From Squalus acanthias (taxonomy: Eukaryota): DNA of 64,000 bases. Below the pieces are notes generated by a model. That model saw only the letters and a program-made list of their open reading frames with translations. It did no database searches and had not been told where the DNA came from. A program made the position numbers and the translations under genes. Every line of letters starts with the position of its first letter. Positions within the stretch are counted from its first letter, which is position 1. This document shows positions 15,086 through 54,238 of this stretch, one piece after another. The DNA is taken from contig CM059440.1 of NCBI GenBank assembly GCA_030390025.1, positions 52,390,001 through 52,454,000 of the forward strand, written 5' to 3'.

Positions 15086-17469
15086 GTCGGGTGGCGGCCG
15101 GAGCGCGGCAGAGATGAGAGGAGCCCCGAGGGTTGGGAGCTCTGTCATTGAGCTCTGCCCCGTGGAGGGCCGGCGGAATCCTCCAGAAGATGCGGGTCTT
15201 TTGCAGCTGTGGAAACTGATAAAGAAACGATTTTCACTGGTCGTCGTCTGGTCTTGTTTTGACAGCTGTCGAGGAGAGCAAAGTATGGTGAGAAGTCTGC
15301 TCGCTGTTTTGGTGGCTGTTGAATTCGGTTTGGCTCAAGGTAAGTCTTTACATGTAACTGTTTCCTTGCACACATTTGAATGAACGATCTACACAGTTTG
15401 AGGTGGTCTTTTCACCATTGAGCAATGGCCCAAAGCAATAACAGTAGTTTCACTTGTAACGTTGGGTAATTTTAATGGGCAAGATGGATAATTCCCAAGT
15501 AAACATTGTTCATGGAGCTGAAAAGAATATTTCAAAGAAACAGCCTCGTCTATTTTGTGATGTTTACTGATCATGTTGCTGCAGTTACTTTTTTATGTCC
15601 ATTTGGTGAAGTGAGGGAACCAAACTTTCTATTTCAGTAGATCACAGGAAATATCAACCCAGGAAATATCAACTCTTCAGGGGAAGAGAGAAAAAGCAGA
15701 AGCGGGGATAATTACTTCTTAGTGCTTTCCTGTCTTCAAGATTAAATCTCTTGGAACAATGCTGTTACTAATCTATTTGTTGTAATTCACAGCTCAGTTT
15801 CAAGTCCACACCCCAGAAGCACCAGTGACTGCTGTCTACGGTCAGTACACGGTGCTGAGTTGCAGCTTTACAGCTCAGGGTGAATCGTCACTGGATCTGC
15901 TGTTCATCAGTTGGCAACGTGTCGAGACGGAGGAAGTTGTTTATTATTATTCTGGAAAAGAGCAACTGAGTCGCCAAAGCCCTCGGTATTCGGGAAGGAC
16001 AAGCTTATTCCCAGAGGAGTTAAAACAAGGGAACGTTTCAGTGAAGCTGGACAGAGTGAGACCAGAGGATGCTGGACAGTACCTGTGCTTAGTCAGTAAT
16101 GCAAAACGAATTGGCCAGGGCATTGTGTCTCTAATATTTGCAGGTACATGCTTCTTTCAGTTTTCATTTTTGTTCTCAGTGCTGCAAAATTAAAGTCATG
16201 CTTCTTGGCCTCCCCTGATGGCTCAGTGAGTCTCCCCATTGAGTGCCTGACCCATACAGACCAGGTTTGATGTCCAGACTGTGCTGGTTTAGCTCCTCTC
16301 CGCTGGAGCAGTGCTATTGGTGCAATCGACACACCTCGGTTAGGGTTGGCACTCCCAATTGCTATTCAGCAAGCCCTGCCTGTGGACGGCTCCAGGATCA
16401 GGGCTGAACTGTGATGGCCTCGCAGGTGAAAAGCCCACTGATATTTACCATCAAGGGTTACGTATGATTTTGGCTGAACAGCTGCCAGCAGGATATTGTG
16501 GGATTTTCACCTTCAACTTGATCACTTGGTACAATGATTTGAATATCTCTAAATTGATCACAAACAGCAATATCTACTATTCTGTTTGTACTTGGATTTG
16601 TTGTTTTTGAGCATTTAAAGCTTTTATTGCATTATTCAATTAGTTATTAACTGGAACAAAATTCCTAGTTGGCATTATTTTTATCAAGTTTATTTCTTGT
16701 TTCTAATGACCCTTTTTAAAAAATCTACAGCATACTACAAGGAACCTGACTTTTTTTATTCAGTTAACACCATCCGGGACAGTGTTCAGATTCGAGTCCC
16801 AAGGTTACCCTGAGGCTACTGTTTCCTGGTACAATGAAGAAAATGAGGATATTTCCATACTGTCTGAGACTTCGTACCAACAAAGTGGAGATGGTCTATA
16901 CTCCCTGCAGAGTATTCTGCAAATCAGTGACACCAATAGGAGTTCGAACTACACATTCAGATTAAGAAATGATGTTCTACACCAATCAGTTTCTCGAACA
17001 TTTGGTCTTTCTGTAGGTAAGTTGTGTCCTACACTCAGTACTCATAACCTCCAGTTGTCTTGCGATACAATGCTGAATCACGACATCTTGATCTCCATGC
17101 CATTTGAAGTAAAGGAAATCTTCTTTCAGTTCTTCAGAAACTTCTGTTCCAGTCTCTGGTTCCACAAGTATAAACGGCTGCACCTTTTTAACTTTCATGG
17201 CCCTACACTTCTTGACTTATCAATGTTCTTGGCCTCACTATCTCCCAAGACCACAAATGGAGCTGCTGCATTGCTCGGCTGCTCAAAAGCTGTTTCCTCG
17301 TTTGTGCCAAACACTTCTCACCAAATACCTTTAACTCTCTATAGCTCGAGTCCTTTTGTGACTTGGATTCTGCTCCCATATTTGGGAAGACTCTCCTTAA
17401 TGTCTCCCTCGCTCCTTGGAGAGGATATAAGAAGTTCTCTCTCTATGCTGTATTGTACCCTCCACGCTA

Positions 17470-17860
17470 TGTAAACTTCAGCTCATCCAAAACCCTGCTG
17501 CCCTTCTCCTATCCTGCACTACGATCTGCTAACCCTCCCCCTGTGCTCGCTGGCCTACATTAGCTCCTGGTTACCAACGCCTCAAATTTAAAATTCTTAT
17601 CCTTGTGGTTAAGTCCCTTCATGGCCTGATCCCTCCTAATCTCTCTCTACCCTTCTCTAGCGTTACAACCCTTTGAGAACTCTGCATTGCTCCAACTCTG
17701 GCATCTTGTGAATTCCCTACTGCCATCGCCCTGCCACTGGCAGCCATCTATAGCTTGCGCTCCAGAATTCCCTGGATAAACCTCTCTCTCTCCTCCCTCT
17801 TTTAAAACTTTCCTTAAAATCCACCTCTTTGACCAAGCATTTAGTCACCCCTTCTAATAT
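17470..17860 (+). mobile_element. L2-type LINE 3' remnant in intron 3 (paralogs about 26710-27140 and 52530-53420)
   Basis: cagctcatccaaaac...ctacattagctcc...tttaaaattcttatccttgtg...ccacctctttgaccaagc. Confidence 0.6.
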
Positions 17861-17869
17861 CTCTCTTTA

Positions 17870-18043
17870 GGTGTCAGCCGTGCATCAGTGGTAGAATGTT
17901 GTGGGTTCAAGCCCAACTCCAGAGACTTGAGCACAAAAATCTAGGCTGACACTCCAGCACTGTGCTGAGGGAGTGCTGCACTGTCGGAGGTGCCGCCTTT
18001 CAGATGAGACGTTAAACCGAGGCACCGTCTGCTCTCAGGTGGA
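17870..18043 (+). mobile_element. DeuSINE 5' half, truncated by a deletion specific to copy 1
   Basis: tRNA-like head and start of the central domain; the full version is at 27155-27580. Confidence 0.7.
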
Positions 18044-19399
18044 AGTAATGCTCAATAGTTTTCTTCCTTTTTTCCACAGAAATGAAAACTGATCACGTTC
18101 TTACAAGAAATCTCTGGATGCTTGCAGTCACTGTCCTTGCTATTGAATTTATAATTTTAATTCTAGTCATAGCCGTGTGCAAGAAACGTGTTTCACTGGC
18201 AAATGGAGAGAAACAAAATGAACACGGCATTACGTGATGGATCATTCAAGAAAATACATGTGATTGGACGCTGCCCCTTCAGCCGTGAAAACCGATATTT
18301 ACTGTCGCAACATCGTGGGTTAATGCTATTCGCAGCCTTGTGCAAATGTGGACATGTCTTCTTAACCCTCACTACTAAATATCAACACACAGAATAAGAA
18401 GTGCCATCTGATTGGTCCCTTTTCTCATTTGTAACTTCCAAACTCTTATTTATTTAATACAACAGTGTTTTTTGTTCATCTTCTGCTGGACCAGGACAGC
18501 TTAATGCAATAAAGCTTTGTATTTAATTCTATTTTCTTCTTTTGTCATTGTCTCCAAGAATTGCTTTAGTTATTTTAGCACCCTGTCCTCCTTTAGTTTA
18601 ACACTTGTGCTGTGAATTTCTTCAGGCCTTCTCCCGCTCCGCCGCCATCACTTTGGAAACCCTGTTTTCCTACGTAATCTGACTGCTGCTAAAGTTAAGG
18701 CGGCACTGTGTGTGGGGGGTGGTTTGGGGGGGGTGGTGGGGTGAAGAACCCCAAAGAATTTCCTGGCAATTGTCTGTGAGCTGAGACACTGACTGAGGGT
18801 GTTTTGAGGATCAGTGTTCCACACACAGTAAACACTGGGAGCTAGAAACCGCATCCGAGTTTGATTCTTCCCCGTCAGTCTGGGGCACTAAGGGAATTGT
18901 AGCACGTTACTCCAATTAGGAATTGAATCTGGGGCCTTCTTAGTATGGCTGTTATATACTGGCTATGTCAGCTGTAGCAGCAGATGACCTCCAAAAGAAC
19001 CATGCTCTAACCCATTGCTGCTCCCACATCCTATTTTTGTGTAAAAGTAGGTGGGCTAGGAATGGCATTACTGCAAAGTACTGTTTTAAAAAGATTGCAT
19101 TGTAACACTACACAGAACTGACTTTAAATGAAGAACCTTATAAGTTTAAGGGTGAAATGGCACTCTGATGCACCTATAAGATGCAAACCCACCAGCACTA
19201 CTAACCCTACCCAGACTAAAGTGGTTACTCCATACCGGTTCCCCAGAACCACTACTGGAACCAGCAAAAAGTTCAACCTAAAGTCAAGCTTGTCTCGTCC
19301 TCTTCGATACAAGCCACACAAAGGGTGCACTTATTTGGAAATTTGTGAATCTTAGGAATTCTCTACCCCAGAGGGCTGTGGATGCTCCTCTTTTGGTTC

Positions 19400-21562
19400 A
19401 ACAAATTGACTGTAAATTAATAAAACCTTAAATAAAACTTAACAAATTAAATTAAAATTGTGTTGGCCGGGGTGATGATGCACTCCAGTCCCCACGGCGC
19501 CCACCGGTCACGGAAGGCCTCGAGCGTGCCGGCGGACACCGCGTGCTCCATCTCCAGGGCCACCCGTGCGCGAACATAGCCGCGGAAGAGAGGCAGGCAA
19601 TCGGGCCGAACGACCCCCTCGACCGCCCACTGCCTGGACCTGTTTATGGCTAATTTCGCCAGGCCCAGGAGCAGTCCCACGAGGAGGTCCCCCGATCTGC
19701 CCGCTCCCCTCCGCACCGGGTGACCAAAGATCAGGAGCGTGGGACTGAAGTGCAGCCAAAAATCGAGGAGCAGCCCCTTCAAATATTGAAAGAGGGGCTG
19801 CAACCTCTCATTCAGTGTCGATGTGGAAGACGGACTCCTCTAGGCTGCAGAAATGGCAAGCGGCCTGGGAGTCTGTAAACCTGCTTAAAATCTTATTGCA
19901 TGGGACTGCTCCGTGCAACACCCTCCAGGCCAAGTCCCCAATAGAAAAGGGGAGGACTCCCGCGTAGAGAGCCCTCCATTAGGGACCTCCGCCTCCGCCG
20001 GACGGCAAGATGGTCGTGTCCGGACGGCAGGCGAAGATGGCAAAGTGGAGAGTGTGCAGGAGCAGCCCGTACAGGAAACCCCTCCGCGCAGAACTAAAAG
20101 GCACGGAGGGCATTTACCCGAGACGGGTCAAGTTGTGAGGCGCCGGTTCCGAGAGGGGTTCCGGGGCCGCGCGCCAATGAGGAATTCCATTCGAACGGGG
20201 GTCAGTTCGGACGGGATCGCCCCACGTGCTTGAGCCTCCTCGATACACCAAGTGGAGTCGGGGCCCAGTGCTGCTTTCAGCGACTCGACGGCTTCGGCCG
20301 CGAGCCGGACGTCGGCCCAGGACAGGCGCTGCGCCAGCTCCTCTTGCACCATCCAACCCGCTCCTCTGCCATCGAGCAGGTCCCTGATTCTAGTCACCCT
20401 GCCAGGCACAGCCCTTCCCTCCGCCAGCCACCCGGACCAGCGGTCGTGGAGGGGCGGATTCCTGAACAGCGGCTCCCGAAGGACAGTCGCCATTCCTGAC
20501 GGGGGAGAACTCCGCCTGGAGGCGACGCTGTTCTAGACCCATAGCAGTTCCTGTTAGAAGACAGGCAGCTCCCACAGGTAGGCACGCGTACGGCCCAATT
20601 CCACAAACAGGAGCTGCGTGTCGTAGTTGAGGCCGTGCAGCTGACGGAAGAAATACATCGCCAGCGCACACCATCTGGGAGGATTCTCGACGTAAAGGTA
20701 TCTCTGCAGCGTCCGAAGATGGAAAGTCGCCGCCTGGGTGCGAAGGCACACCAGCGCCTGACCGCCCTCCCTAAGCGGGAGACTCAGAACCGCGGCAGAG
20801 ACCCAGTGCTTCCTTTTGTCCCAGAAGAAGTCGACGAGCTTCTTCTGCATCTTGGCGACAAACGCAGGGGGAGGGATCAAAGTGATCAACCGGTACCACA
20901 GCATGGCGGCCACCAGCTGGTTTATGACCAGCGCTCGACCCCTGTAGGATAACACTCAGAGCAGTCCTGTCCAGCGTCCTAGGCGATCGGTGGCTTTGGC
21001 CTCCAGCTCTTGCCAGTTCGCCGGCCAGGCGTCCTCGGCGGGGCTGAGGTAGACTCCCAAGTAGAGGAGGTGCATGGTGCTCCAGGCGAAGGGCCTGAAC
21101 TCCTCCGGCAGGGAGTCCACCCGCCACTGGCCCACCAGGAGTCCAGAACATTTCTCCCAATTGATCCTGGCGGAGGATGCGTCCGAGTAAATCTGCTGGC
21201 ATTCTCGCATCCTCCGCAAGTCGACGGGATCCATGACCATGAGGAGCACGTCATCAGCGTAAACCGAGAGGATGACCTCCACGCCCGGCCCTTGCAGAGC
21301 CAGTCCCGTCAACCTCTTCCGCAAGAGGCGCAGGAAAGGCTCCACGCAGACGGCGTATAACTGACTGGACATGGGGCATCCCTGGCGTACCCCACTCCCG
21401 AAGCGAAGGGGCGCCGTCAAAGACCCGTTGACTTTTATCAGTCACTCCGCGGCGGCGTACAGAAGTCTGATCCGGGCGACGAAATGCGTCCCGAACCCGA
21501 ATGCGCGCAGAGTTCCGAAAAGATACTCGTGATCCACCCTGTCGAACGCCTTCTCCTGATCC
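19400..21562 (-). mobile_element. Tx1/L1-clade LINE, 5'-truncated ORF2 (RT to C-terminal Cys/His motif)
   Basis: ORFs 20956-21420 (GVRQGCPMS, YADD), 20554-20955 (SYRGRALVINQL) and 19447-19803. Confidence 0.92.
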
Positions 21563-22075
21563 AGGTAAGTTTTTAACAAGGTAAGTGGTTAATTAATTAC
21601 AATTTAAAAAAAATTTCAACAGGTTTATCTTTTTTAGATACTTTAAAGAAAGGTAAGTTTATTTTTAGCACTGTTACAAAGTATAATTAATTTTTTCAAA
21701 AATTAAAATTTTTGTTTAAAGTAGTTAATTTATGTAACTTATAGTTATTTTAAAAATGTGATGTTTTTTTTAAAATTTATTTGAAGTTTAAGTGTGGTTT
21801 TGGGGCCGATCTCTATTCATAGATTTGACAGGTCTTCCTGTCAAATCTATGAATGAAAATGCCCTGCTAGGATTGGCTCTCCGTGGCCCACGTGATCCCA
21901 GGGGACGCTTCGAACTAACTGCGCCCCTGGGATACGCAAGCACTGCGCACCGGCAGCTGGAGGAGGCCCAGGACCCGAAGTCCTCCTGGGCCCAAAGCAC
22001 AACTGCAGGCGCGGTAGGCAAGTACGCGCGCGATGCTTGCACCCGCAGGAAGCCTGAAAGCTGAATTTCTGGCCC
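21562..22075. mobile_element. Truncated non-autonomous PIF/Harbinger-type element (right end)
   Basis: Homologous to the TIR/TSD-bounded element 62904-63645; ends aatttctggccc|att. Confidence 0.65.
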
Positions 22076-22144
22076 ATTAATTAACTCAAGATAAGGGTGA
22101 CAATCTAGTCTAACGGTTGAGCAGTCGCAAATAACATAATAAGG

Positions 22145-23290
<1,146 letters not shown>

Positions 23291-24219
23291 TCATTGTATA
23301 TCCTGAGGAAAGTGACGATATCACTCTTGCACAAGTATAATATGCGTGTCCCTACATTACAAGAGTGGTTGCACTTCAAAAGTGCTTCATTGGATGAGGT
23401 TAAAAAAAAACATTCTCTGATTGCGGGCTGAATCTTTTTTTAATTTTTTTTTTGTCGATTGGGAGATGGACTTGCATTTCTACAGCACCTTTCATGACCT
23501 CAGGATGTCCCAAAGCGCTTTACAGCCAATGAAGTACTTTTCTGAATCTTTTTATTATTCAAGTACATTAGTAATCAGTTACATAGTAAACCATTACATA
23601 CCTTGATCACAATAAAGCTTTAAAAACAGCTTTATGATTTTTTTTTCTGGGCCCTCCACACTAGCATTCCCCGCAAGCAGCCAGGGTGTGGAGCTCACCC
23701 GTTCACAAAGCACCAAGCTGGAATGAGAATCTTGCAGCCTGGGCTTCGATTTTGTCATTGGGGCGTGCTTTATGATTTTTTTTTAAGTTAATGGTCTTTT
23801 ATTGGAAAAAAAAGACTAGCATTTACAACTTGGAATGGACATAATTGTAATTTGCCGAACAGCCATGTCGTCATTGTGCTGAAGTCCTATGTAGATATAT
23901 ACTCTGACGGCTCCAAGTTATGGTACAGAACAGAAGATAAACGCGAGAGTCCAAGACACTCCCTTATCATAGGTAACTTTTTTTAAAATTCAGTGAACGG
24001 TAAATTGCCTGACATCCGTTTCACTATAGTGCAATGCAGACACGTTAACCAAGTTTTATACAGACATACCATCCATTTTTGAAATTGTTTTTAAATTAAG
24101 ATCTTCAATCCTGGTAATTGTTTTGTGAGCACACTGTTAAGTATTGCTTTATGATTATTGTGGGCTGGAGTCCAGCTGGGCAATGTGTCTGGAGCGTCTG
24201 TCGGCATGGAATGCGTGGT

Positions 24220-24245
24220 GCGTGATGACGCAGGCAGTATAAAGA
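24220..24245 (+). promoter_or_regulatory. CRE-like site and TATA box of B7-like copy 2
   Basis: TGACGCA 24226-24232 and TATAAA 24238-24243, about 180 bp upstream of the ATG. Confidence 0.55.
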
Positions 24246-24494
24246 GATGCCGGGCACAGCGCGCCAGAGACGAGCGGAGCTCCGAGGGTTGGGAGCTCTG
24301 TTCATGAGATCTGCCCCGTGGAAGCCTCCATAAGATGCGGGTTTTTTGCAGCCGTGGAAACCGATAAAGAAACGATTTTCACTGGTCGTCGTCTTGTGAC
24401 AGCTGTCGAGGAGAGCAAAGTATGGTGCGAAGTCTGCTCGCTGTTTTGGTGGCTGTTGAATTCAGTTTGGCTCAAGGTAAGTCTTTAAATGTAA

Positions 24495-24587
24495 ACAACA
24501 ACAGAAAACGCTGGAAAAACTCAGCAGGCCAGGCAACATCCGTGGAGAGAGAAACAGTTAACGTTTCAGGTCGAAACCCTTCGTCAG
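24495..24587 (-). mobile_element. 93-bp Penelope-derived insertion with hammerhead core, 15-bp TSD
   Basis: TSD AGTCTTTAAATGTAA (24480-24494 and 24588-24602); absent from copy 1; matches 1940-2035. Confidence 0.85.
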
Positions 24588-27018
24588 AGTCTTTAAATGT
24601 AACTGTGTCCTTGCACACATTAGAATGAACGATCTACACAGTTTCAGGTGGTCTTTTCACCATTTAGCAATGGCCCAAAGCAATAACAGTAGTTTCACTT
24701 GTAATGTTGGGTCATTTTAATGGGCAAGGTGGATAATTCCCAAGTAAACATTGTTCATGGAGCTGAAAAGAATATTTCAAAGAAACAGCTCCGTCTATTT
24801 TGTGATGTTTACTAGTCATGTTGCTGCAGATGCTGCAGTACTTTTCTATGTCCATTTGGTGCGGTGAGGTGAGGGAACCAAAGTTTCTATTTCAGTAGAT
24901 CACAGGAAATATCAACCCAGGAAATAACTCTTCAGGGGAAGAGAGAAAATGCAGAAGTGGGGATAATTACTTCTTAGTGCTTTCCTGTCTTCAAGATTAA
25001 ATCTCTTGCAACAATGTTGTTACTAATCTATTTGTTTTATTTCACAGCTCAGTTTCAAGTCCACACCCCAGAAGCACCAGTGTCTACGGTCAGTACACGG
25101 TGCTGAGTTACTGCTCAGAGTGAATCGTCACTGGATCTGCTGTTCATCAGTTGGCAACGTGTTGAGACGGAGGAAGTTGTTTATAGTTATTGTGGAAAAA
25201 AGCTACTGAGTCGCCAAAGCCCTCGGTATTCGGGGAGGACAAGCTTATTCCCAGAGGAGTTAAAACAAGGGAACGTTTCGGTGAAGCTGGACAGAGTGAG
25301 ACCAGAGGATGCTGGACAGTATGTGTGCTTTGTCAGTAATGGTAAAGGAAGTGGCCAGGGCATTGTGTCTCTAATATTTGCAGGTACATGCTTCTTTCAG
25401 TTTTAATTTTTGTTCTCAGTGCTGCAAAATTAAAGTCATGCTTCTTGGCCTCCCCTGATGGCTCAGTGAGTCTCACCATTGAGTGCCTGAGCCGTACAGA
25501 CCAGGTTTGATGTCCAGACTGTGCTGGTTTAGCTCCTCTCCGCTGGAGCAGTGCTATTGGTGCAATCGACACATCTCGGTTAGGGTTGGCACTCCCGTTT
25601 GCTATTCAGCAAGTACTGCCTGTGGACGGCTCCAGGATCGGGCTGAACTGTGATGGCCTCGCAGGTGAAAAGCCCACTGATATTTACCATCAAGGGTTAC
25701 GTATGATTTTGGCTGAACAGCTGCCAGCAGGATATTGTGGGATTTTCACCTTCAACTTGATCATTTGGTACAATGATTTGAATATCTCCAAATTGATCAC
25801 AAACAGCAATATCTACTATTCTGTTTGTATTTGGATTTGTTGTTTTTGAGCATTAAAAGCTTTTATTGCAATTTTCAATTAGTTATTAACTGGAACAAAA
25901 TTCCTAGTTGGCATTATTTTTATCAAGTTTATTTCTTGTTTCTAATGACCCTTTTGTAAAATCTACAGCATACTACAAGGAACCTGACTTTTTTATCCAG
26001 TTAACACCATCCGGGACAGTGTTCAGATTCGAGTCCCAAGGTTACCCTGAGGCTACTGTTTCCTGGTACAATGAAGAAAATGAGGATATTTCTACACTGT
26101 CTGAGACTTCGTACCAACAAAGTGGAGATGGTCTATACTCCCTGCAGAGTATTCTGCAAATCAATGACACCAATAGGAGTTCGAACTACACATTCAGATT
26201 AAGAAATGATGTTCTACACCAATCAGTTTCTCGAACATTTGGTCTTTCTGTAGGTAAGTTGTGTCCTACACTCAGTACTCATAACCTCCAGTTGTCTTGC
26301 GATACAATGCTGAATCACGACATCTTGATCTCCATGCCATTTGAAGTAAAGGAAATCTTCTTTCAGTTCTTCAGAAACTTCTGTTCCAGTCTCTGGTTCC
26401 ACAAGTATAAACGGCTGCACCTTTTTAACTTTCATGGCCCTACACTTCTTGACTTATCAATGTTCTTGGCCTCACTATCTCCCAAGACCACAAATGGAGC
26501 TGCTGCATTGCTCGGCTGCTCAAAAGCTGTTTCCTCGTTTGTGCCAAACACTTCTTACCAAATACCTTTAACTCTCTATAGCTCGAGTCCTTTTGTGACT
26601 TGGATTCTGCTCCCATATTTGGGAAGAATCTCCTTAATGTCTCCCTCGCACCTTGGAGAGGATATAAGAAGCTCTCTCTATGCTGTATTGTACCCTCCAC
26701 GCTATGTAAACTTCAGCTCATCCAAAACTCTGCTGCCCTTCTCCTATCCTGCACTACGATCTGCTAACCCTCCCCCTGTGCTCGCTGGCCTACATTAGCT
26801 CCTGGCTACCAACGCCTCAAATTTAAAATTCTTATCCTTGTGGTTAAGTCCCTTCATGGCCTCGTCCCTCCTTATCTCTCTGTACCCTTCTCTGGACCTA
26901 CAACCCTCTGAGACCTCTGCATTGCTCCAACTCTGGCATCTTGTGAATTCCCTACTGCCATCGCCCTGCCACTGGCAGCCATCTATAGCTTGTGCTCCAG
27001 AATTCCCTGGATAAACCT

Positions 27019-27030
27019 CTGTGTGTGTGT

Positions 27031-43369: not shown

Positions 43370-43880
43370 ACTACAGCAATAACTTACATTTATGGCGTGC
43401 CTTCAACATAGCTAAATGTCCCAGTGCACGTCACAAAGGCGTGGCCATCAGAAATAGACACGCAGCCCAAAGTAGGTAATATTAACCAAAAGCTTTGTCA
43501 CAGTGGTAGGTTTTAAGGAGGGTCTTAAAGGAGGAGGTGGAAAGATGGAGGGATTTAGGGAGGGATTTCCGGAGCATGGAGCCTTGGGAGACTGAAGCCA
43601 CGACTGCCAATATGGGACGCTGGGAGGGTGGGGTGGGGGGGGAATGCACAAGAGGCCGGAGTCGGAGGAACAGAGAATTTGGGGGTGGGGGTTGTGGGGT
43701 CACAGAAGGCTGTAGAGATTGGGAGGGGCAAAGGCATGAAAGGAATTCAATATAAGGATGGGAATTTTAAATCGGAGGCAATGGGAGACTGGGAGCCAAT
43801 GTAGATCGGGGGTGATGGGTCAGTGAGACGTGATGTGGGATAGGATATGGGCAGCAGAGGTTTGGATAAAAGAAGTATAC
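43370..43880 (-). mobile_element. Old L2-type LINE 3' fragment
   Basis: Reverse complement of the tail seen at 39130-39440. Confidence 0.55.
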
Positions 43881-44509
43881 AGAGGGTGGGTGATGGGTAG
43901 CCATCAAAGGATTTAGAAGACGCTCCATAAATGGAAGTTTGTTTCCCCTTTCTTAAACTACTTACGTTGTAGTGAAACAACAAAGGCAGATGTGTTGTGA
44001 CTGTTACCAGGGTACTGAGGGTGGAACTCAAGACGTTAGAGGTATCAACAATGCTTTGATTTGATTGCCCAGAAACATTCCAGGGATTTTTGTAACTTCA
44101 GTAAATTACGAGCTTATAATACTCCACTAGTAATATTTCCCATTACTGTTTAAACAAGAATGATAATATTCAATTGAAGACTGATACATTTTGTTCATTT
44201 AACATGATTTTACTAGTCAGATGTTGGGCTTGAAGCTCAGTTTGCAGACTCAGTTACTACTCCCTCGGTCATAATTGTACTTTCCGAGTCTAGTTTTCAT
44301 TCTCTCATCCTGCAAACACATAGGCATCATACCCATCCAACAGAACAAGTCTAACCACGCACTCCACCCGAGACTACAGCCTGTGTCACTCTTTCCAAAC
44401 ACCTGACTCCTAATATTTCCCCAGTGTTGACTGTGTGAACATTTGTCACGGGGGAATTAGTGCATTTCTGGCTGCAGTATTGATCATGTGGTAGAGACCG
44501 CGTTACATT

Positions 44510-45227
44510 ACCTTACATCATACATTCAATGGCATGACCATCGCCGAATCCTCCACCATCAACATCCTGGGGGTCACCATTGACCAGAAACTTAACTGGA
44601 CCAGCCACATACTGTGGCAACATGAGTAGGTCAGAGGCTGGGTATTCTGCGGCGAGTGTCTCACCTCCTGACTCCCCAAAGCCTTTCCACCATCTACAAG
44701 GCACAAGTAAGGAGTGTGATGGAATACTCTCCACTTGCCTGGATGAGTGCAGCTCCAACAACACTCAAGAAGCTCGACACCATCCAGGACAAAGCAGCCC
44801 GCTTGATTGGCACCTCATCCACCACCTTAAACATTCACTCCCTCCACCACCGGCGCACCGTGGCTGCAGTGTGTACCATCTACAAGATGCACTGCAGCAA
44901 CTCGCCATGGCTTCTTCGGCAGCACCTCCCAAACCCGCGACCTCTTCCACCTAGAAGGACAAGGGCAGCAGGTGCATGGGAACACCACCCCCTCCAAGTT
45001 CCCCTCCAAGTCACACACCATCCTGACTTAGAAGTATATTGCTGATCCTTCATCGTCGCTGGGTCAAAATCCTGGAACTCCCTCCCTAACAACACTGTGG
45101 GAGTACCATCACCGCACGGACTGCAGCAGTTCAAGAAGGCGGCTCACCACCACCTTCTCAAGGGATGGGCAATAAATGCTGGCATTGCCAGCGACGCCCT
45201 GATCCCATAAACGAATAAAAAAAAAAT
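44510..45227 (+). mobile_element. CR1/L2-group LINE 3' fragment with poly(A) (a family distinct from the main CR1)
   Basis: ILGVTIDQKLNW...YKAQVRSVMEYSPLAW...LDTIQDKAARLI; tail ggcaataaatgctgg...aataaaaaaaa. Confidence 0.8.
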
Positions 45228-45583
45228 CACCTATAATCTCTTCGCCTCGGGGCAACTGCAGTTTATGTCCTGCACAAGGATATGCAGGAACTCCCCCAAC
45301 ACCACCCCACCACAGAAAGACAAGTCAGTCTGTTCCCAGGATTTCACATTTAGCCAGCAGAGGGAATGATCCAGCAAAGAGCGCAGAACATGACGCACAG
45401 GAGTTCCTTCACTGTTTTTGCAGAAGTACTTTGGTGGGAGGACACAGAAAATTAGGCAAGTGCTGCAAAAATGCAAGTTGTTGTGGAGTTAAGTGTAATT
45501 TCAGTGCGTTACTATTTCCACTCTTGCCCGCCCTAGGTTTTATCTCTTCCTGCTTGAGGTGGCCTCCTGGAACTTCTCGCACA

Positions 45584-46090
45584 CCAAGTAGAGGAGGTGC
45601 GTGGTGCTCCAGGCGAAGGGCCTGAACTCCTCCGGCAGGGAGTCCACCCGCCACTGGCCCACCAGGAGTCCAGAACATTTCTCCCAATTGATCCTGGCGG
45701 AGGATGCGTCCGAGTAAATCTGCTGGCATTCTCGCATCCTCCGCAAGTCCACGGGATCCGTGACCATGAGGAGCACGTCATTAGCGTAAACCGAGAGGAT
45801 GACCTCCACGCCCGGCCCTTGTAGAGCCAGTCCCATCAACCTCTTCCGCAAGAGGCGCAGGAAAGGCTCCACGCAGACGGCGTATAAATGACTGGACATG
45901 GGGCATCCCTGGTGCACCCCACTCCCGAAGCGAAGGGGCGCCGTCAAAGACCCGTTGACTTTTATCAGTCACTCCGCGGCAGCGTACAGAAGTCTGATCC
46001 AGGCGACGAAATGCGTCCCGAACCCGAATGCGCGCAGAGTTCCGAAAAGATACTCGTGATCCACCCTGTCGAATGCCTTCTCCTGATCCA
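45584..46090 (-). mobile_element. Tx1 RT fragment (duplicated)
   Basis: ORF 45540-45947 (GVHQGCPMS, YAND). Confidence 0.88.
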
Positions 46091-46602
46091 GGTAAGTTTT
46101 TAACAAGGTAAGTGGTTAATTAATTACAATTTAAAAAATTTTTCAACAGGTTTATCTTTTTTAGATACTTTAAAGAAAGGTAAGTTTATTTTTAGCACCG
46201 TTACAAAGTATAATTAATTTTTTCAAAAATTTAAATTTTTGTTTAAAGTAGTTAATTTATGTAACTTATAGTTATTTTAAAAATGTGATGTTTTTTTAAA
46301 AATTTATTTGAAGTTTAAGTGTGGTTTTGGGGCCGATCTCTATTCATAGATTTGACAGGTCTTCCTGTCAAATCTATGAATGAAAATGCCCTGCTAGGAT
46401 TGGCTCTCCGTGGCCCACGTGATCCCAGGGGATGCTTCGAACTAACTGCGCCCCTGGGATACGCAAGCACTGCGCACCGGCAGCTGGAGGAGGCCCAGGA
46501 CCCGAAGTCTTCGTGGGCCCAAAGCACAACTGCAGACGCGGTAGGCAAGTACGCGCGCGATGCTTGCACCCGCAGGAAGCATGAAAGCTGAATTTCTGGC
46601 CC
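46089..46602. mobile_element. Truncated Harbinger-type element (paralog of 21562-22075)
   Basis: Near-identical sequence. Confidence 0.65.
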
Positions 46603-46671
46603 ATTAATTAACTCAAGATAAGGGTGACAATCTAGTCTAACGGTTGAGCAGTCGCAAATCACATAATAAGG

Positions 46672-47325
46672 GACCTGTACAGGCTGCTCCTGCACACTCT
46701 CCACTTTGCCATCTTCGCCTGCCGTCCGGACACGCCTTGGCCTGCCATCTTGCCGTCCGGTGGAGGTGAAGGTCCCTACGCGGGAGTCCTCCCCTTTTCT
46801 ATTGGGGACTTGGTCTGGAGGGTGTTGCACGGAGCAGTCCCGTGCAATAAGATTTTAAACAGGTTCACAGACTCCCAGGCCGCTTGCTATTTTTGCGGCC
46901 TAGAGGAGTCCGTGTTCCACGTATACGTGGAATGTGTGAGGTTGCAGCCCCTGTTCCATTATTGGAAGGGGCTGCTCCTCGATTTTTGGCTGCACTTCGG
47001 TCCCACGCTCCTGATCTACGGTCACCCGGTGCGAAGGAGAAAAGGCAGGTCGGAGGACCTCCTCGTAGGACTGCTCCTGGGCCTGGCCAAAGTTGCCATT
47101 AATAGGTCCCGGCAGCGGGCGGCCGAGGGGGTCGTTCGCCCCATTGCCTGCCTCTCTTCCGCGGCTATGTTCGCGCCCGGGTGGCCCTGGAGATGGAGCA
47201 CGCGGTGTCCGCCGGCACGATTGAGGCCTTCCGAGACCGGTGGGCGCCGCGGGGACTGGAGTGCATTATCACCTCGGCCAGTGTGATTTTACTTTAATTT
47301 GATATGTTTTAAAATTTAATTTAAG
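46672..47325 (+). mobile_element. Tx1 ORF2 3' fragment (duplicated)
   Basis: ORF 46750-47286. Confidence 0.88.
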
Positions 47326-47346
47326 TATTTTAAGTTCCTTTGCAGT

Positions 47347-47803
47347 TCATTTGTTTGTCCGGGAGAGCGGGAGGCTCCGCTCGGCGATGCAGAGAGCTCT
47401 GCGGATGGAGAAGAGTGTCAACCAGAGTCTGCTGGATCTGCACAAACTCTCCACTGGGAGCGCCGACCCTCATCTGTGTGAATTCCTGGAGACCCACTAT
47501 CTGGATGAACAAGTGAAGACGATCAAGGAGCTTGGAGATCACATCACCAACTTGTTGAGACTGAGTTCCCTGCCTTGTAGGCAATGATGGCCTGTGACTT
47601 TGTACAAAGAGCTGAACTTGAGCTCTGTAATGTCATTTACTGTAAATAAAATGTTCAAATTTTAAAAAAAAACTTGAAATAAAACTTTTTAAAAATCTCA
47701 AGCCACATTCCCACGGGGCACACGGAGATGGGCCAAAAAAAAGAGCTGAACTTGAGCTCTGTAATGTTATTTACTGTAAATAAAATGTTCAAATAAAAAA
47801 AAT
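47347..47803 (+). pseudogene. Processed ferritin fragment (duplicate)
   Basis: ORF 47351-47587, same ferritin peptide. Confidence 0.85.
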
Positions 47804-48209
47804 CATTGTATATCCTGATGAAAGTGACGATATCACTCTTGCACAAGTATAATATGCGTGTCCCTACATTACAAGAGTGGTTGCACTTCAAAAGTGCTTC
47901 ATTGGATGAGGTTAAAAAAAAAACATTCTCTGATTGCGGGCTGAATCTTTTTTTTTAAATGTTGTAGATTGGGAGATGGACTTGCATTTCAACAGCACCT
48001 TTCATGACCTCAGGATGTCCCAAAGCGCTTTACAGCCAATGAAGTACTTTTTTGAAATTTTTATTATTCAAGTACATTAGTAATCATACAACTCATCAGT
48101 TACATAGTAAACCATTACATACCTTGATCACAATAAAGCCTTAAAAACAGCTTTATGATTTTTTTTTCTGGGCCCTCCACACTAGCATTCCCCGCAAGCA
48201 GCCAGGGTG

Positions 48210-49490
48210 AATCTTTTATTCAAATCAATAATACTTATACAACTCATCAATTACATAGTAAATCCATTACATTCATCCATCACAGTAAAACATAAAGCCT
48301 TAAAAACAGCCTTATAGTTAATATAAATGCAATGATTAATTTTACAAATAATCAATAATGTTTACAGTACAAATACCCTTAAACAATACCACACAATTTT
48401 TTAGATTTAAAATAATAAATCTCAGTTAACTCCACATAAAACAACCCATTTCAACACCACAGTGTACAAACACATAGCACCATCATAATCCAATTAAATG
48501 CTACAGATAACATTTATTCCAATAAACCAAGAAAACCTGTTTTATGCCAGTCCTACTGGCATTGTTCATTCGATCATTCATTCAATTGTTCGTCCGTTCA
48601 TTCAAGCGTTCGTCCGTTCGTTCACTCGAGCGTCCGTTCGTTCAATAATTTACCAATATTAATTTACTTTATCTTTTCAGCCACACCCAACACTAGACAA
48701 TAACCTCAAAGTAAATTCCTACATAACCACCAATACATCACCATGTGCAAATTCCCACAGTCCTTATCAGAAAATCAATTGAGCTTCAAGTAAACTGCTT
48801 TCAAACAGAAAACCTGAAACCTTCCCAACAAAACAATTAAATACCAGTTCTACGCCAGTCCTTTTGGCAATCCATTAACGAATATCATTTGATGTTGTCG
48901 AACCATGTAAAGTCATAGTCCTTGTCCGCAGTCTTCAGCCCTTCCACGGAAAAAGAAGCCATCCACTGCCTGAAATCCCGTAAAAAGACCAAACACTCAA
49001 ATCTTCTTCTGCTTGCTGTTATTGCTCACAGGACCCAACCATCAAAGAATACTCATCATTCCTTACTGATATTACTTTGCTCTGTCTTTTACTCTCCTTT
49101 TATTTTCCGTCTTTTAACCATTCACATTTTCCATCTTGTAACCGCTCACGCGCCCCATTACAGATGGAAACAGTTTGTCTTTCCTTCACCAATATGGCGA
49201 CGCATAAACCGGTCCCATGACCAAGAAAAAGCCTTACAGCTGCCGCCAGGCAGAGCAGATGCTGGGCCGCTGGAACTCATTCAGGCCCGAAACCATTCTG
49301 CAACTTTCAGAACCAGTGCAGCAATGCTCACCAACCGCATCTCCCGACTCCACCTCTGCCGACCAGCCGCGCCGCCCTGGGCCCCCCGCCTGGGGTTCTC
49401 CCCGCCCAGGCCACTCTCCTCCGGGTCTTCCACCTTGGGCCTTCTGCACCGGACCCTCCGCACCGGCATTCCCCGCAAGCAGCCGGGGTG
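48210..49490 (-). mobile_element. About 1.3-kb retroposon-like segment present only in unit B
   Basis: Begins with the AT-rich tail family of 14190-14400 and is bounded by about 39-bp imperfect direct repeats; absent at about 23688 in unit A. Confidence 0.6.
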
Positions 49491-50024
49491 TGGAGCTCAC
49501 CCGTTCACAAAGCACCAAGCTGAACTGAGAATCTTGCAGCCTGGGCTTCGATTTTGTCATTGGGGCGTGCTTTATGATTTTTTTTTAAGTTAATGGTCTT
49601 TTATTGGAAAAAAAAAGACTAGCATTTACAACTTGGAATGGGCATAATTGTAATTTGCCGAACAGCCATGTCGTCATTGTGCTGAAGTCCTATGTAGATA
49701 TATACTCTGACGGCTCCAAGTTATGGTACAGAACAGAAGATAAACGCGAGAGTCCAAGACACTCCCTTATCATAGGTAACTTTTTAAAAAATTCAGTGAA
49801 CGCTAAATTGCCTGACATCCGTTTCACTATAGTGCAATGCAGACACGTTAACCAAGTTTTAAACAGACATGCCATCCATTTTTTAATTTTTTTTTAAATT
49901 AAGATCTTCAATCCTGGTAATTGTTTTGTGAGCACACTGTTAAGTATTGCTTTATGATTATTGCGGGCTGGAGTCCAGCTGGGCAATGTGTCTGGAGCGT
50001 CTGTCGGCATGTAGTGTGTGGTGC

Positions 50025-50048
50025 GTGATGACGCAGCCAGTATAAAGA
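50025..50048 (+). promoter_or_regulatory. CRE-like site and TATA box of B7-like copy 3
   Basis: TGACGCA at about 50029-50035 and TATAAA 50041-50046. Confidence 0.55.
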
Positions 50049-50224
50049 GAGTGCCGGGCACAGCGCGCCAGAGACGAGCGGAGCCTCGAGGGTTGGGAGC
50101 TGTGCCCCGTGGAGGGCCGGCGGAAGCCTCCATAAGATGCGGGGTTTTTTGCAGCCGTGGAAACCGATAAAGAAACGATTTTCACTGGTCGTCGTCTTGT
50201 GACAGCTGTTGAGGAGAGCAAAGT

Positions 50225-50279
50225 ATGGTGAGAAGTCTGCTCGCTGTTTTGGTGGCTGTTCAATTCAGTTTGGCTCAAG
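50225..50279 (+). CDS. Copy 3 exon 1: signal peptide
   Basis: MVRSLLAVLVAVQFSLAQ, then G|gtaagt. Confidence 0.85.
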
Positions 50280-53200
50280 GTAAGTCTTTAAATGTAAACA
50301 ACAGAAAACGCTGGAAAAACTCAGCAGGCCAGGCAACATCCGTGGAGAGAGAAACAGTTAACGTTTCAGGTCGAAACCCTTCGTCAGAGTCTTTAAATGT
50401 AACTGTGTACTTGCACACATTAGAATGAACGATCTACACAGTTTCAGGTGGTCTTTTCACCATTTAGCAATGGCCCAAAGCAATAACAGTAGTTTCACTT
50501 GTAATGTTGGGTCATTTTAATGGGCAAGGTGGATAATTCCCAAGTAAGCATTGTTCATGGAGCTGAAAAGAGTATTTCAAAGAAACAGCTCCGTCTATTT
50601 TGTGATGTTTACTGGTCATGTTGCTGCAGATGCTGCAGTACTTTTTTATGTCCATTTGCTGAGGTGAGATGAGGGAACCAAACTTTCTATTTCAGTAGAT
50701 CACAGGAAATATCAACCCAGGAAACAACTCTTCAGGGGAAGAGAGAAAATGCAGAAGTGGGGATAATTACTTCTTAGTGCTTTCCTGTCTTCAAGATTAA
50801 ATCACTTGCAACAATGTTGTTACTAATCTATTTGTTTTAATTCACAGCTCAGTTTCAAGTCCACACCCCAGAAGCACCAGTGACTGCTGTCTACGGCCAG
50901 TACACGGTGCTGAGTTGCAGTTTTACAGCTCAGGGTGAATCATCACTGGATCTGCTGTTCATCAGTTGGCAACGTGTCGAGACGGAGGAAGTTGTTTATA
51001 AATATTATTCTGGAAAAGAGCAACTGAGTCGCCAAAGCCCTCGGTATTCGGGGAGGACAAGCTTATTCCCAGAGGAGTTAAAACAAGGGAACGTTTCAGT
51101 GAAGCTGGACAGAGTGAGACCAGAGGATGCTGGACAGTACCTGTGCTTAGTCAGTAACGGAAAAGGAAATGGCCAGGGCATTGTGTCTCTAATATTTGCA
51201 GGTACATGCTTCTTTCAGTTTTCATTTTTGTTCTGTCAGTGCTGCAAATTAAAGTCATGCTTCTTGGCCTCCCCTGATGGCTCAGTGAGTCTCACCATTG
51301 AGTGCCTGAGCCGTACAGACCAGGTTTGATGTCCAGACTCTGCTGGTTTAGCTCCTCTCTGCTGGAACAGTGCTATTGGTGCAATCGACACACCTCGGTT
51401 AGGGTTGGCACTCCCGTTTGCTATTCAGCAAGCCCTGCCTGTGGACGGCTCCAGGATCAGGCTGAACTGTGATGGCCTCGCAGGTGAAAAGCCCACTGAT
51501 ATTTACCATCAAGGGTTACGTATGATTTTGGCTGAACAGCTGCCAGCAGGATATTGTGGGATTTTCACCTTCAACTTGATCACTTGGTACAATGATTTGA
51601 ATATCTCCAAATTGATCACAAACAGCAATATCTACTATTCTGTTTGTACTTGGATTTGTTGTTTTTGAGCATTTAAAGCTTTTATTGCATTATTCAATTA
51701 GTTATTAACTGGAACAAAATTCCTAGTTGGCATTATTTTTATCAAGTTTATTTCTTGTTTCTAATGACCCTTTTGTAAAATCTACAGCATACTACAAGGA
51801 ACCTGACTTTTTTATCCAATTAACACCATCCGGGACAGTGTTCAGATTCGAGTCCCAAGGTTACCCTGAGGCTACTGTTTCCTGGTACAATGAAGAAAAT
51901 GAAGATATTTCCATACTGTCTGAGACTTCGTACCAACAAAGTGGAGATGGTCTATACTCCCTGCAGAGTATTCTGCAAATCAGTGACCCCAATAGGAGTT
52001 CTAACTACACATTCAGATTAAGAAATGATGTTCTACACCAATCAGTTTCTCGAACATTTGCTCTTTCTGTAGGTAAGTTGTGTCCTACACTCAGTACTCA
52101 TAACCTCCAGTTGTCTTGCGATACAATGCTGAATCACGACATCTTGATCTCCATGCCATTTGAAGTAAAGGAAATCTTCTTTCAGTTCTTCAGAAACTTC
52201 TGTTCCAGTCTCTGGTTCCACAAGTATAAACCGCTGCACCTTTTTTAACTTTCATGGGCTGACACTTCTTGAGTTATCAATGTTCTTGGCCTCACTATCT
52301 CCCAAGACCACAAATGGAGCTGCTGCATTGCTCGGCTGCTCAAAAGCTGTTTCCTCGTTTGTGCCAAACACTTCTTACCAAATACCTTTAACTCTCTATA
52401 GCTCGAGCCCTTTTGTGACTTGGATACTGCTCCCATATTTGGGAAGACTCTCCTTAATGGCTTCCCTCGCTCCTTGGAGAGGATATAAGAAGTTCTCTCT
52501 ATGCTGTATTGTACCCTCCACGCTATGTAAACTTCAGCTCATCCAAAACCCTGCTGCCCTTCTCCTATCCTGCACTACGATCTGCTAACCCTCTCCCTGT
52601 GCTTGCTGGCCTACATTAGCTCCTGGTTACCAACGCCTCAAATTAAAAATTCTTATCCTTGTGGTTAAGTCCCTTCATGGCCTGATCCCTCCTAATCTCT
52701 ACCCCTACAACCCTCAGACCTCTGCATTGCTCCAACTCTGGCATCTTGTGAATTCCCTACTGCCATCGCCCTGCCACTGGCGTGTGTGCGTGTGTGTGTG
52801 TGTGTGTGTCCTCTTTGACCGAGCTTTTTGAGCGTGCGTGCGCGTGTGTGTGTGCCACCTCTTTGACCGAGCTTTTTGAGCGTGCGTGCGCGTGTGTGTG
52901 TGCCACCTCTTTGACCGAGCTTTTTGAGCGTGCGTGCGCATGTGTGTGTGCCACCTCTTTGACCGAGCTTTTTGAGCGTGTGTGCGTGTGCCACCTCTTT
53001 GACCGAGCTTTTTGAGCGTGCGTGCGCGTGTGTGTGTGCCACCTCTTTGACCGAGCTTTTTGAGCGCGTGTGTGTGTGCCACCTCTTTGACCGAGCTTTT
53101 TGAGCGTGCGTGCGCATGTGTGTGTGCCACCTCTTTGACCGAGCTTTTTGAGCGTGTGTGCGTGTGCCACCTCTTTGACCGAGCTTTTTGAGCGTGCGTG

Positions 53201-54238
53201 CGCGTGTGTGTGTGCCACCTCTTTGACCGAGCTTTTTGAGCGTGCGTGCGCGTGTGTGTGTGCCACCTCTTTGACCGAGCTTTTTGAGCGTGCGTGCGCG
53301 TGTGTGTGTGTGTGCCACCTCTTTGACCGAGCTTTTTGAGCGTGCGTGCGTGTGCCACCTCTTTGACCGAGCTTTTTGAGCGTGCGTGCGTGTGCCACCT
53401 CTTTGACCGAGCTTTTAGTCACCCCTTCTAATATCTCTCTTGGGTGTCAGCCTTGCATCAGGTAGGAGAATGTTGTGGGTTCAAGCCCAACTCGAGACTT
53501 GAGCACAAAAATCTAGGCTGACACTCCAGCACTGCTGAGGGAGTGCTGCACTGTCTGAGGTGCTGCCTTTCAGATGAGACGTTAAACCAAAGCACCATCT
53601 GCTCTCTCAGGTGGATGTAAAAGATCCCATGGCACTATTGCGAAGAGCAGGGGAGTTCTCCCTGCTGTGCTGACTATTATTATCCTTCAACCAACATCAC
53701 TTATCTAATTACTGTTTGTGGGAGCTTGCTGTGTGCAAATTCACTGCTGTGTTTCCTGCATGTCAACAGTGATCACTTAAAGTACCTCATTGGCTGTAAA
53801 GCGCTTTGGGGTTGTGAATGGTGCTGTATAAATATGTGGGGGTTTTTTGGCTGATTACGCTACTGTGAAGCACCTTGGGATGTTTTTCTACATTAAAGGT
53901 GCTGTATCAATGCACTTTTTGTTTCTGGTTTAGGCTACGACTATGTTATCCAATGTTTAAAAATACTTTCACCATAGAATTACATTCTTAAATGCGGTCG
54001 TGCTTTTATGGTGGTTGTATTTTAAATTATTAGCACTGAAACCACTGCTGTAATGATCAATAGTTTTTTTTTTTCCACAGAAATGAAAACTGATCACGTT
54101 CTTACAAGAAATCGCTGGATGCTTGCAGTCACTGTCCTTGCTATTGAATTTATAATTTTAATTCTAGTCATAGCCGTGTGCAAGAAACTTGTTTCACTGG
54201 CAAATGGAGAGAAACAAAATGAACACGGCATTACGTGA
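50225..54238 (+). CDS. B7-family Ig-superfamily type I membrane protein, CD276 (B7-H3)-like, copy 3; intact spliced CDS of 283 aa
   Basis: join(50225-50279, 50848-51201, 51788-52072, 54081-54238) = 852 nt, all GT-AG phase 1. Motifs RTSLFPEELKQGNVS, EDAGQYLC, YKEP, QGYPEA.V.W, GLYSLQSIL and RNDVL parallel B7-H3. AATAAA 54509-54514. Confidence 0.9.
50298..50387 (-). mobile_element. 90-bp Penelope-derived hammerhead-core insertion in intron 1
   Basis: Same 15-bp TSD as in copy 2 (50283-50297 and 50388-50402). Confidence 0.85.
50848..51201 (+). CDS. Copy 3 exon 2: IgV domain
   Basis: LSC, ISWQ and DAGQYLC; ttcacag acceptor, G|gtacat donor. Confidence 0.92.
51788..52072 (+). CDS. Copy 3 exon 3: Cys-less IgC-like domain
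   Basis: AYYKEP...FRFESQGYPEATVSW...NYTFRLRN; ctacag acceptor, G|gtaagt donor. Confidence 0.9.
52780..53416. repeat. Minisatellite, 14 units of 40-52 bp
   Basis: Constant CCACCTCTTTGACCGAGCTTTTTGAG core plus a variable (GT/GC)n tract. Confidence 0.95.
54081..54238 (+). CDS. Copy 3 exon 4: transmembrane helix and short cytoplasmic tail
   Basis: RWMLAVTVLAIEFIILILVIAVCKK...EHGIT*; polypyrimidine-ccacag acceptor. Confidence 0.85.

Follow-up and report, generated by a model that had tools for sequence, protein, structure and literature searches.

The window analysed here, a stretch of 64,000 nucleotides from Squalus acanthias (assembly GCA_030390025.1, contig CM059440.1, positions 52,390,001 to 52,454,000 of the forward strand), contains three near-identical copies of a gene for a B7-type surface protein with one variable-type (IgV) and one constant-type (IgC) immunoglobulin domain. 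We consider it very likely that this gene belongs to an old B7 subfamily of jawed fish, filed in databases under automatic names such as 'CD276 antigen-like' and zgc:153911, and that it represents one of four chondrichthyan lineages of that subfamily (lineage a), recently triplicated at this locus. Taken as a whole, the observations are best explained, with reasonable rather than firm confidence on our part, by recent triplication of a lineage-a gene encoding a dimeric B7-type ligand. The subfamily is apparently uncharacterised: we found no paper on it in the open-access literature, with the proviso that Hansen 2009, Flajnik 2012 and the elephant shark supplement (PMC3964593) could already name it. 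For immune-type genes in repeat-rich surroundings a triplication by itself would be nothing unusual. The point of interest is the gene family, a B7 branch that goes under five or more different automatic labels, with a constant structural signature and common to cartilaginous, lobe-finned and ray-finned fish.

Three gene copies, one of them intact

The copies, numbered by their position in the window, are the following.

15285..18237, + strand: copy 1, exons 15285-15339, 15793-16143, 16731-17016 and 18080-18237; frameshifted
24422..27979, + strand: copy 2, exons 24422-24476, 25048-25383, 25969-26253 and 27822-27979; pseudogene
50225..54238, + strand: copy 3, exons 50225-50279, 50848-51201, 51788-52072 and 54081-54238; intact, 283 amino acids

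In each copy the four exons encode, in order, the signal peptide (55 nucleotides), the IgV domain, the IgC domain, and stalk, transmembrane (TM) segment and tail together (158 nucleotides), and all introns are GT-AG and of phase 1. Coding sequences are 96.5% identical between copies 1 and 2, 97.9% between copies 1 and 3, and 96.0% between copies 2 and 3; a poly(A) signal follows copy 3 at 54509. Copy 1 has an extra T in the T run at 16751-16757 of its IgC exon (seven T, against six in copies 2 and 3), which leads to a stop at codon 163; this is its sole lesion and a single homopolymer base, so a consensus error is possible. Copy 2 carries deletions of 7 and 8 nucleotides in the IgV exon and a stop at codon 38 (25104-25106). 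The genes lie where the preliminary description had placed them, and its observation is confirmed: it had reported three near-identical four-exon genes, one intact and two disrupted, with a single exon for TM segment and tail and an atypical IgC domain.

What is atypical about the IgC domain is its core. The IgV domain matches Pfam V-set with 50.5 bits (cut-off 26), and the IgC domain matches C2-set_3, the butyrophilin-type C domain, with 30.1 bits, barely above the cut-off of 27. In the mature copy 3 protein cysteines are found solely at 42 and 118, within IgV, and at 265, at the end of the TM segment. Both positions of the canonical IgC cysteines are phenylalanine in all three copies, where human CD276 has cysteine at both, and the IgC tryptophan is retained. 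The copy 3 tail, 18 residues long, shares its exon with stalk and TM segment; a glutamate within the TM segment (Glu254) is present in copies 1 and 3 and replaced by valine in copy 2. Measured against what defines a B7 protein, type I topology and IgV and IgC domains each on its own phase-1 exon are present, and the canonical B-F disulfide of IgC is absent.

A TATA-like hexamer preceded by a CRE (cAMP response element)-like site lies ~180 bp 5' of the ATG in copies 2 and 3 (24236-24246; 50038-50048), both being consensus matches only. In copy 1 the hexamer is altered (15070-15080) and the upstream region is just ~81% identical.

Tandem duplication and local decay

Two duplication units and an assembly gap frame copies 2 and 3.

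21057..45583, no strand: duplication unit B, 24.5 kb, starting within a Tx1-like retroelement and containing copy 2, the gap and an orphan exon
45584..64000, continuing past the window, no strand: duplication unit C, containing copy 3 and later insertions of its own
28372..28525, no strand: assembly gap of 154 N directly behind copy 2, where unit C has ~860 bp

When the window is compared with itself, 21057-35215 is collinear with 45584-64000 in blocks of 91-97% BLAST identity, and at 45584 the end of unit B is joined to the interior of a Tx1-like element with a 3-base microhomology. Copy 1 has just ~4.2 kb in common with copies 2 and 3. Substitution divergence over the aligned duplicated blocks is 2.1-5.1%, transitions making up about half of the changes, and the three copies are roughly equidistant, with private differences in every one of them (84, 65 and 108 columns) that stem partly from poorly aligned stretches.

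Imagine that copies 2 and 3 were two alleles which the assembly had lined up one after the other on either side of the gap, and that the frameshift of copy 1 were a sequencing error. The layout lends itself to this reading to some extent: the gap parts copies 1 and 2, on its left, from copy 3, on its right, so that copies 2 and 3 lie on different contigs, and the lesion of copy 1 is one base in a T run. Block divergence, the near-equidistance of the copies and the insertions private to unit C all speak against it. Moreover, the duplication is seen inside both gap-free stretches, since copies 1 and 2 share the left one and the blocks 28534-35215 and 55462-64000 both lie within the right one. 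Because coding divergence reaches 4%, each gap-free stretch holds duplicated sequence and the junction is novel, we regard such an artefact as highly improbable, and it would at most cut the copy count from three to two. Copies 2 and 3 probably stem from the 24.5-kb tandem duplication, and the earlier assumption of distinct copies rather than collapsed haplotigs probably holds.

The ratio of nonsynonymous to synonymous differences (pN/pS) is 0.32 between copies 1 and 3 (Fisher p 0.02) and 0.44 between copies 2 and 3 (p 0.02). As both ratios lie below 1, the copies appear to have been constrained through much of their short history and to have broken recently, a pattern of local birth-and-death. 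For the IgV domain the copies do not differ by more amino-acid changes than expected (pN/pS 0.20-0.61), which gives no support for positive selection there; differences between copies are greatest in the C-C' and F-G regions of IgV, on very small numbers.

An old B7 subfamily of jawed fish

With the IgC exon as query, 12 of 27 candidates matched, all of them chondrichthyan 'CD276 antigen-like' or hypothetical proteins of 60-88% identity. A profile of those 12 picked out 68 of 8000 candidates, and a second one, made from 8 distant members, matched 101 of 5516. The named members belong to chimaera, sharks, rays, lungfish (three genes), bichir, sturgeons, paddlefish, gar, bowfin and non-acanthomorph teleosts including zebrafish, with the gar and Denticeps entries named zgc:153911. 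Because one clade carries the labels CD276 (including a few plain 'CD276 antigen'), PD-L1, HHLA2, VTCN1 and butyrophilin, we take these to be best-hit labels.

In 97 aligned named members the canonical IgC cysteine is found in none at either position, and bulky hydrophobic residues substitute for both; the IgC tryptophan is kept in all 97, and the two IgV cysteines in 96 and 97 of them. Note that this set was chosen by hand and describes the clade: it excludes unnamed entries, short or duplicate isoforms, V-V proteins and cysteine-bearing butyrophilin-like or HHLA2-like matches. Named cysteine-bearing V-C matches of both profile searches all score at E 1e-39 or weaker. Copy 3 conforms to the subfamily pattern, with hydrophobic residues at both IgC cysteine positions and with IgC tryptophan and IgV disulfide kept. 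No named tetrapod member is among the 68 and 101 matches, the sole tetrapod being a frog HHLA2 outside the clade, a negative that is limited by the reliance of the searches on shared exact words and by some cysteine-less representatives that carry no taxon. The preliminary description had proposed a subfamily specific to cartilaginous fish, and this we have to abandon: the same cysteine-less IgC occurs in lungfish, bichir, sturgeons, gar, bowfin and many teleosts.

Two side observations concern annotation. In three species (P0045, P0053, P0064) annotated isoforms skip the entire IgC exon and join IgV to the TM segment, as the phase-1 exons permit. P0220 (Danio rerio) and P0059 (Pimephales) are labelled PD-L1 or PD-L1-like yet belong to the cysteine-less family, P0220 grouping with the zgc:153911 entries; names of this kind are no guide to orthology.

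A tree of 62 ectodomains (IQ-TREE), with fish butyrophilin-like and HHLA2-like proteins as outgroup and the frog HHLA2 row, a long branch covering IgV only, for outgroup use only, contains four chondrichthyan lineages: a (support 93/95), b (96/91, without chimaera), c (99/100) and d (100/100). Bony-fish genes form a group of their own (92/84) with two ray-finned lineages. Copy 3 falls into an 18-row clade (97/92) that unites lineages a and d with the chimaera gene; within lineage a it belongs to neither the galeomorph (97/88) nor the batoid (100/99) group and takes an unsettled position beside Heptranchias and Pristiophorus, which points to a squalomorph shark as the most likely source. Lineages a and b are present in chimaera, and each lineage largely tracks the species tree. 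From this topology, the subfamily predates the split of chimaeras and sharks, is common to bony fish and is mostly stable. Monophyly of lineages a to d, one side of a branch at 67/39, is neither shown nor rejected, and their expansion alone may be specific to chondrichthyans. The paralogs apparently lie on one chromosome in at least five species (for example Heptranchias a, b, c; Mustelus a, b, c, d; Pristis a, b, c; Callorhinchus a, b), which does not imply adjacency.

Extra lineage-a copies in Scyliorhinus torazame (P0006, P0010) and Heterodontus (P0005, P0058) suggest that lineage a duplicates repeatedly; the protein set was clustered at 90%, a level at which duplicates as young as the three described here would merge, hiding copy numbers. 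The rapid turnover that had been proposed for the family is therefore borne out locally, by one intact and two broken copies with pN/pS of 0.32-0.44, and not for the subfamily at large, where four old lineages mostly follow the species tree.

Copy 3 is 64-77% identical to its lineage-a orthologues in sharks and most rays and 49% to that of chimaera, with IgC at 77-87% to other sharks and with TM segment and tail at just 40-72% among those orthologues that have a TM segment. An unusually conserved IgC was considered as a feature of the lineage and failed across it (conservation 0.79, against 0.80 for IgV). The TM glutamate is found in 13 of 13 lineage-a proteins with a TM segment, chimaera included, compared with 0/13 in lineage b, 0/13 in c (one has aspartate), 0/2 in d and 0/11 of the bony-fish proteins checked. 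Tails in lineage a are 11-37 residues long (one is partial), and YxxL/I/V is absent from all 13. A pairing of this glutamate with a lysine or arginine in another TM segment of the cluster was judged unlikely, since the TM cores of lineages b and c are free of basic residues. Lineage c (P0022, P0025, P0028, P0030, P0031, P0033, P0036-P0038, P0040, P0042, P0044, P0047) has a new, non-canonical pair of IgC cysteines in 13 of 13 proteins, after the C-strand tryptophan and before the F strand, gained where the canonical pair was lost.

Relation to CD276 and other B7-type proteins

In a profile search of solved structures CD276 scores E 1e-36, PD-L1 2e-28 and butyrophilins 9e-22 or weaker, and CD276 also comes first among solved structures when IgV (E 7e-18, two-Ig chain) and IgC (E 3e-4) are taken singly. 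Signal peptide, IgV, IgC and TM segment, along with the best matches in sequence and structure, uphold the B7-type architecture first described, with CD276 (B7-H3) as nearest solved relative. CD276 is typically a single-copy gene with a longer, conserved, multi-exon cytoplasmic tail. The window genes, in contrast, lack both canonical IgC cysteines, have an 18-residue tail within the TM exon and a TM glutamate, and form a multi-gene cluster. All gnathostomes are reported to have a CD276 that is strongly conserved (PMC13262535), and the teleost gene is reported to be of V-C type (PMC3172298, whose Table 1 gives 7-10 exons for the four-Ig mammalian genes). Because of the missing IgC disulfide, the tail, the copy number and these reports of a conserved CD276, the gene is probably not the CD276 orthologue, as the preliminary description had also held.

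Closest to the window genes are the fish 'CD276 antigen-like' or zgc:153911-like genes known as automatic annotations: they fall into the same clade, share the cysteine-less IgC and are of similar size (~265-330 residues). What the window adds is a fresh triplication, two pseudogenes, the substitutions S70K and Y73S in the IgV C strand, and an orphan inverted exon. PD-L1 (CD274) and VTCN1 (B7-H4), whose labels some fish members bear, resemble the family in V-C fold (Z ~20) and short tail, and differ in reaching only 22-30% identity. PD-L1 and VTCN1 keep the IgC disulfide, and PD-L2 was seen to keep it too. Butyrophilins (BTN2A1, BTN3A, BTNL3/8) and other expanding B7-related clusters (Skint, chicken BG and Xenopus B7HXen) share the V-C ectodomain and the tandem cluster with local duplication and loss, and their IgC-mediated dimers may have a counterpart in the dimer modelled here. 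Unlike butyrophilins, the window family lacks B30.2 (PRY/SPRY): copy 3 stops 18 residues past the TM segment, and its orthologues, at 270-307 residues, have no SPRY in their Pfam lists. Fish butyrophilin-like proteins keep the IgC cysteines and fall outside the clade.

Predicted fold and a candidate IgC-paired dimer

We modelled the sawshark orthologue (P0004; 76% identical to copy 3, 85% in IgC) with AlphaFold from 97 sequences, an earlier model from 12 sequences being poor (predicted local distance difference test, pLDDT, 65) and discarded. The model has a pLDDT of 92.2, a predicted template-modelling score of 0.74 and a complete seven-strand IgC sandwich. It aligns with B7-H3 at Z 21.2 (root-mean-square deviation 4.5, 219 aligned residues, 31% identity) and with PD-L1 at Z ~20, and butyrophilins were also matched. 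Foldseek ranked chains of BTN3A2 and BTN2A1 first and second, level with B7-H3; structural re-ranking placed CD276 and then PD-L1 on top, CD276 having the highest structural identity (31-33%). Given a confident model with a full IgC sandwich that matches B7-H3, PD-L1 and butyrophilins, phenylalanine in place of cysteine is predicted to be a stable alternative IgC core and not decay. The subfamily would then offer a natural, long-conserved case of an immunoglobulin constant domain able to fold in the absence of its disulfide.

Residues 19-270 of P0004 were modelled in two copies as a homodimer, with a score of 0.38 compared with 0.16 for the best of three controls. The runs agreed in at least 85% of contacts at a pLDDT of at least 85, and placed the interface at residues 140, 142-149, 223-232 and 264, on IgC strands A and G. 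Among microbial proteins, 21 of the 30 solved homodimers and none of the 23 single chains passed the mark used for calling a homodimer; for eukaryotes the counts were 17/29 and 0/30 respectively (7/16 for homodimers of animals). The model supports a candidate homodimer of the IgC-IgC kind, possibly through likeness to dimers already solved.

A putative ligand and its rivals

How might such a protein act? We lean towards a type I dimeric B7-type ligand, paired through IgC strands A and G, with a TM glutamate and with IgV shown to a lymphocyte receptor. Lineage a was very likely copied twice more here, the last time by the 24.5-kb tandem duplication, with two of the three copies decaying afterwards. 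The product would be a type I surface protein without a signalling tail, hence in a ligand role, that pairs with itself or with a paralog of the cluster through IgC strands A and G; the conserved TM glutamate could serve as a second helix-pairing site, and IgV would be presented to an immunoglobulin-superfamily receptor on lymphocytes, most plausibly of the CD28 family. Acidic residues in TM segments drive helix pairing, and B7 proteins with short tails act as ligands. According to PMC11599192, receptors of the CD28 family bind proteins of the B7 family, and chondrichthyans and bony fish possess four extra members that humans lack; for both reasons we regard CD28-family receptors as the first candidates. 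That paper draws no link between the extra CD28 members and this B7 family, and the distributions match loosely; the receptor may perhaps be one of these orphan fish members, and the gene would presumably be expressed in immune tissue.

The main rival, unlikely in our view, is a butyrophilin-like role, in which the linked paralogs a to d would form IgC-paired homo- or heterodimers on epithelia and engage or select gamma-delta (or new antigen receptor, NAR) T-cell receptors without a B30.2 sensor. Mammalian BTN2A1/BTN3A and BTNL3/BTNL8 heterodimers engage or select gamma-delta T-cell receptors, and the co-retention of four linked paralog lineages across sharks and rays, the modelled IgC-IgC dimer and the Foldseek ranking speak for such a role. 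However, the profile favours CD276 and PD-L1 over butyrophilins by the E values given above, teleost butyrophilin-like proteins fall into the outgroup, and B30.2 is found in no member. Alternatively, the genes might be divergent CD276 co-orthologues, either fish CD276 itself or a fish-only duplicate branch, with a B7-H3-like function. Most automatic labels read CD276-like, and CD276 leads the solved matches for IgV, IgC and profile as well as structural identity. Yet CD276 may top these matches simply through slow evolution, both of its IgC cysteines in human are phenylalanine here, the labels of the clade extend to PD-L1, HHLA2, VTCN1 and butyrophilin, and a conserved gnathostome CD276 and a teleost V-C CD276 are reported elsewhere (PMC13262535 and PMC3172298). 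We consider co-orthology improbable; a sister-group relation of the subfamily to CD276 is possible.

About equally doubtful is a non-immune function in adhesion or tissue architecture, comparable to MOG or to what B7-H3 does outside immunity; the triplication would then be a neutral consequence of a region rich in retroelements. A tail without signalling motif and the conservation of lineage a (IgC in particular, at the 77-87% already mentioned) would suit it, as would two broken copies out of three in a window dense in CR1, RTE and Tx1-like elements. Against this, the nearest solved relatives are all B7 or butyrophilin, the extra copies in S. torazame and Heterodontus suggest recurrent duplication, and the copies differ most in the IgV regions named above, with the same reservation about small numbers.

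Several observations weigh against the ligand reading that we prefer, the leading position of CD276 among solved matches being one. The dimer was modelled on the sawshark orthologue and not on the window protein. Similar dimers of B7 and butyrophilin proteins are already solved, so that its pass may merely echo them: of the eukaryotic pairs that lack an older solved relative, only 1 of 7 passed. Conservation at the interface does not exceed that of the remaining IgC (0.78 versus 0.79), and the TM glutamate (252 in the model) lies outside the confident contacts. Between copies 1 and 2 pN/pS is 0.61, not significantly below 1 (p 0.19). At three columns where 14 orthologues all agree, copy 3 has a substitution (S70K, Y73S, A101V), possibly a sign of decay; other orthologues depart at 0-4 such columns and chimaera at 12. 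The tree was built without canonical CD276, VTCN1, ICOSL, PD-L1 and B7-H6, so it leaves the subfamily unplaced among B7 genes; the homologue searches returned no named non-human canonical CD276, VTCN1, ICOSL or B7-H6. Finally, a Pfam scan of 133 open reading frames in the window (128 of 151 low-repeat frames and 5 chosen ones) gave six matches, all to retroelement or ferritin fragments, and hence no neighbouring host gene for synteny.

Keeping these points in mind, a broader picture can be drawn, which we offer tentatively and think unlikely to hold in every part: an unnamed, ancient B7 subfamily of jawed fish, lost or unrecognisable in tetrapods, with an aromatic core in place of the IgC disulfide and IgC-paired dimers, whose four chondrichthyan paralogs would be ligands of the orphan receptors CD28HL1-3 and CD28X or butyrophilin-like selectors of shark T cells. 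The lineage-a TM glutamate, kept from chimaera to rays, would recruit a membrane partner, and the IgV face would diversify by duplication and loss. Should the subfamily be confirmed as separate from CD276, it would add a member to the ancestral B7 repertoire and supply concrete ligand candidates for those CD28-family receptors of fish that humans lack, and fish genes called 'CD276-like' or 'PD-L1-like' in transcriptome papers may not be those genes. With a member in zebrafish, ordinary genetics can test the family.

An orphan exon in inverted orientation

A search of the window with 68 homologues (tblastn) found one further piece of the family.

40485..40627, - strand: orphan TM/tail exon of an older paralog; AG acceptor intact, frame open, TM glutamate kept

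At the nucleotide level it is 67% identical to exon 4 plus intron of copies 2 and 3 (E 4e-7), and its peptide score of 51 was reached by 0 of 2000 shuffles. The same search found no IgV or IgC exon in the window beyond the three genes; three weak matches (E 0.03-0.04) were dismissed as chance. On the simplest reading, the 24.5-kb duplication captured only the 3' part of a paralog in convergent orientation. This reading predicts a twin of the exon near 69 kb on the minus strand and, behind it, IgC, IgV and signal-peptide exons that would complete an intact convergent gene past the window.

Insertions and repeats around the copies

Unit C carries a 1.26-kb insertion 5' of copy 3 (~48210-49490), with near-perfect direct repeats of 25 bp on its flanks and an AT-rich end; its longest open reading frame has no Pfam match, and it is possibly a non-autonomous retroelement. 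Intron 3 of copy 3 holds a 0.6-kb minisatellite (52786-53416) in which a unit of 40-48 bp is repeated ~13 times; it has grown in the place of a (TG)/(TC) microsatellite seen in copy 2 (27022-27088). A fragment of a long interspersed nuclear element (LINE) is also found in unit C near 62-64 kb.

The 3' part of a ferritin-like coding sequence occurs twice, at 22850-23042 (+) and ~47340-47584 (+), with a match to Pfam Ferritin at E 2e-11 and without introns over that stretch. It is fused behind the end of a Tx1-like element and was duplicated with the unit, and is likely a truncated retrocopy. Young retroelements, all broken, lie densely at 674-14011, 19413-21570, 34930-38700 and 61923-63900; they comprise several CR1-type LINEs, one with a piece of a GDSL/esterase ORF1, Tx1-like fragments and a long RTE-type element.

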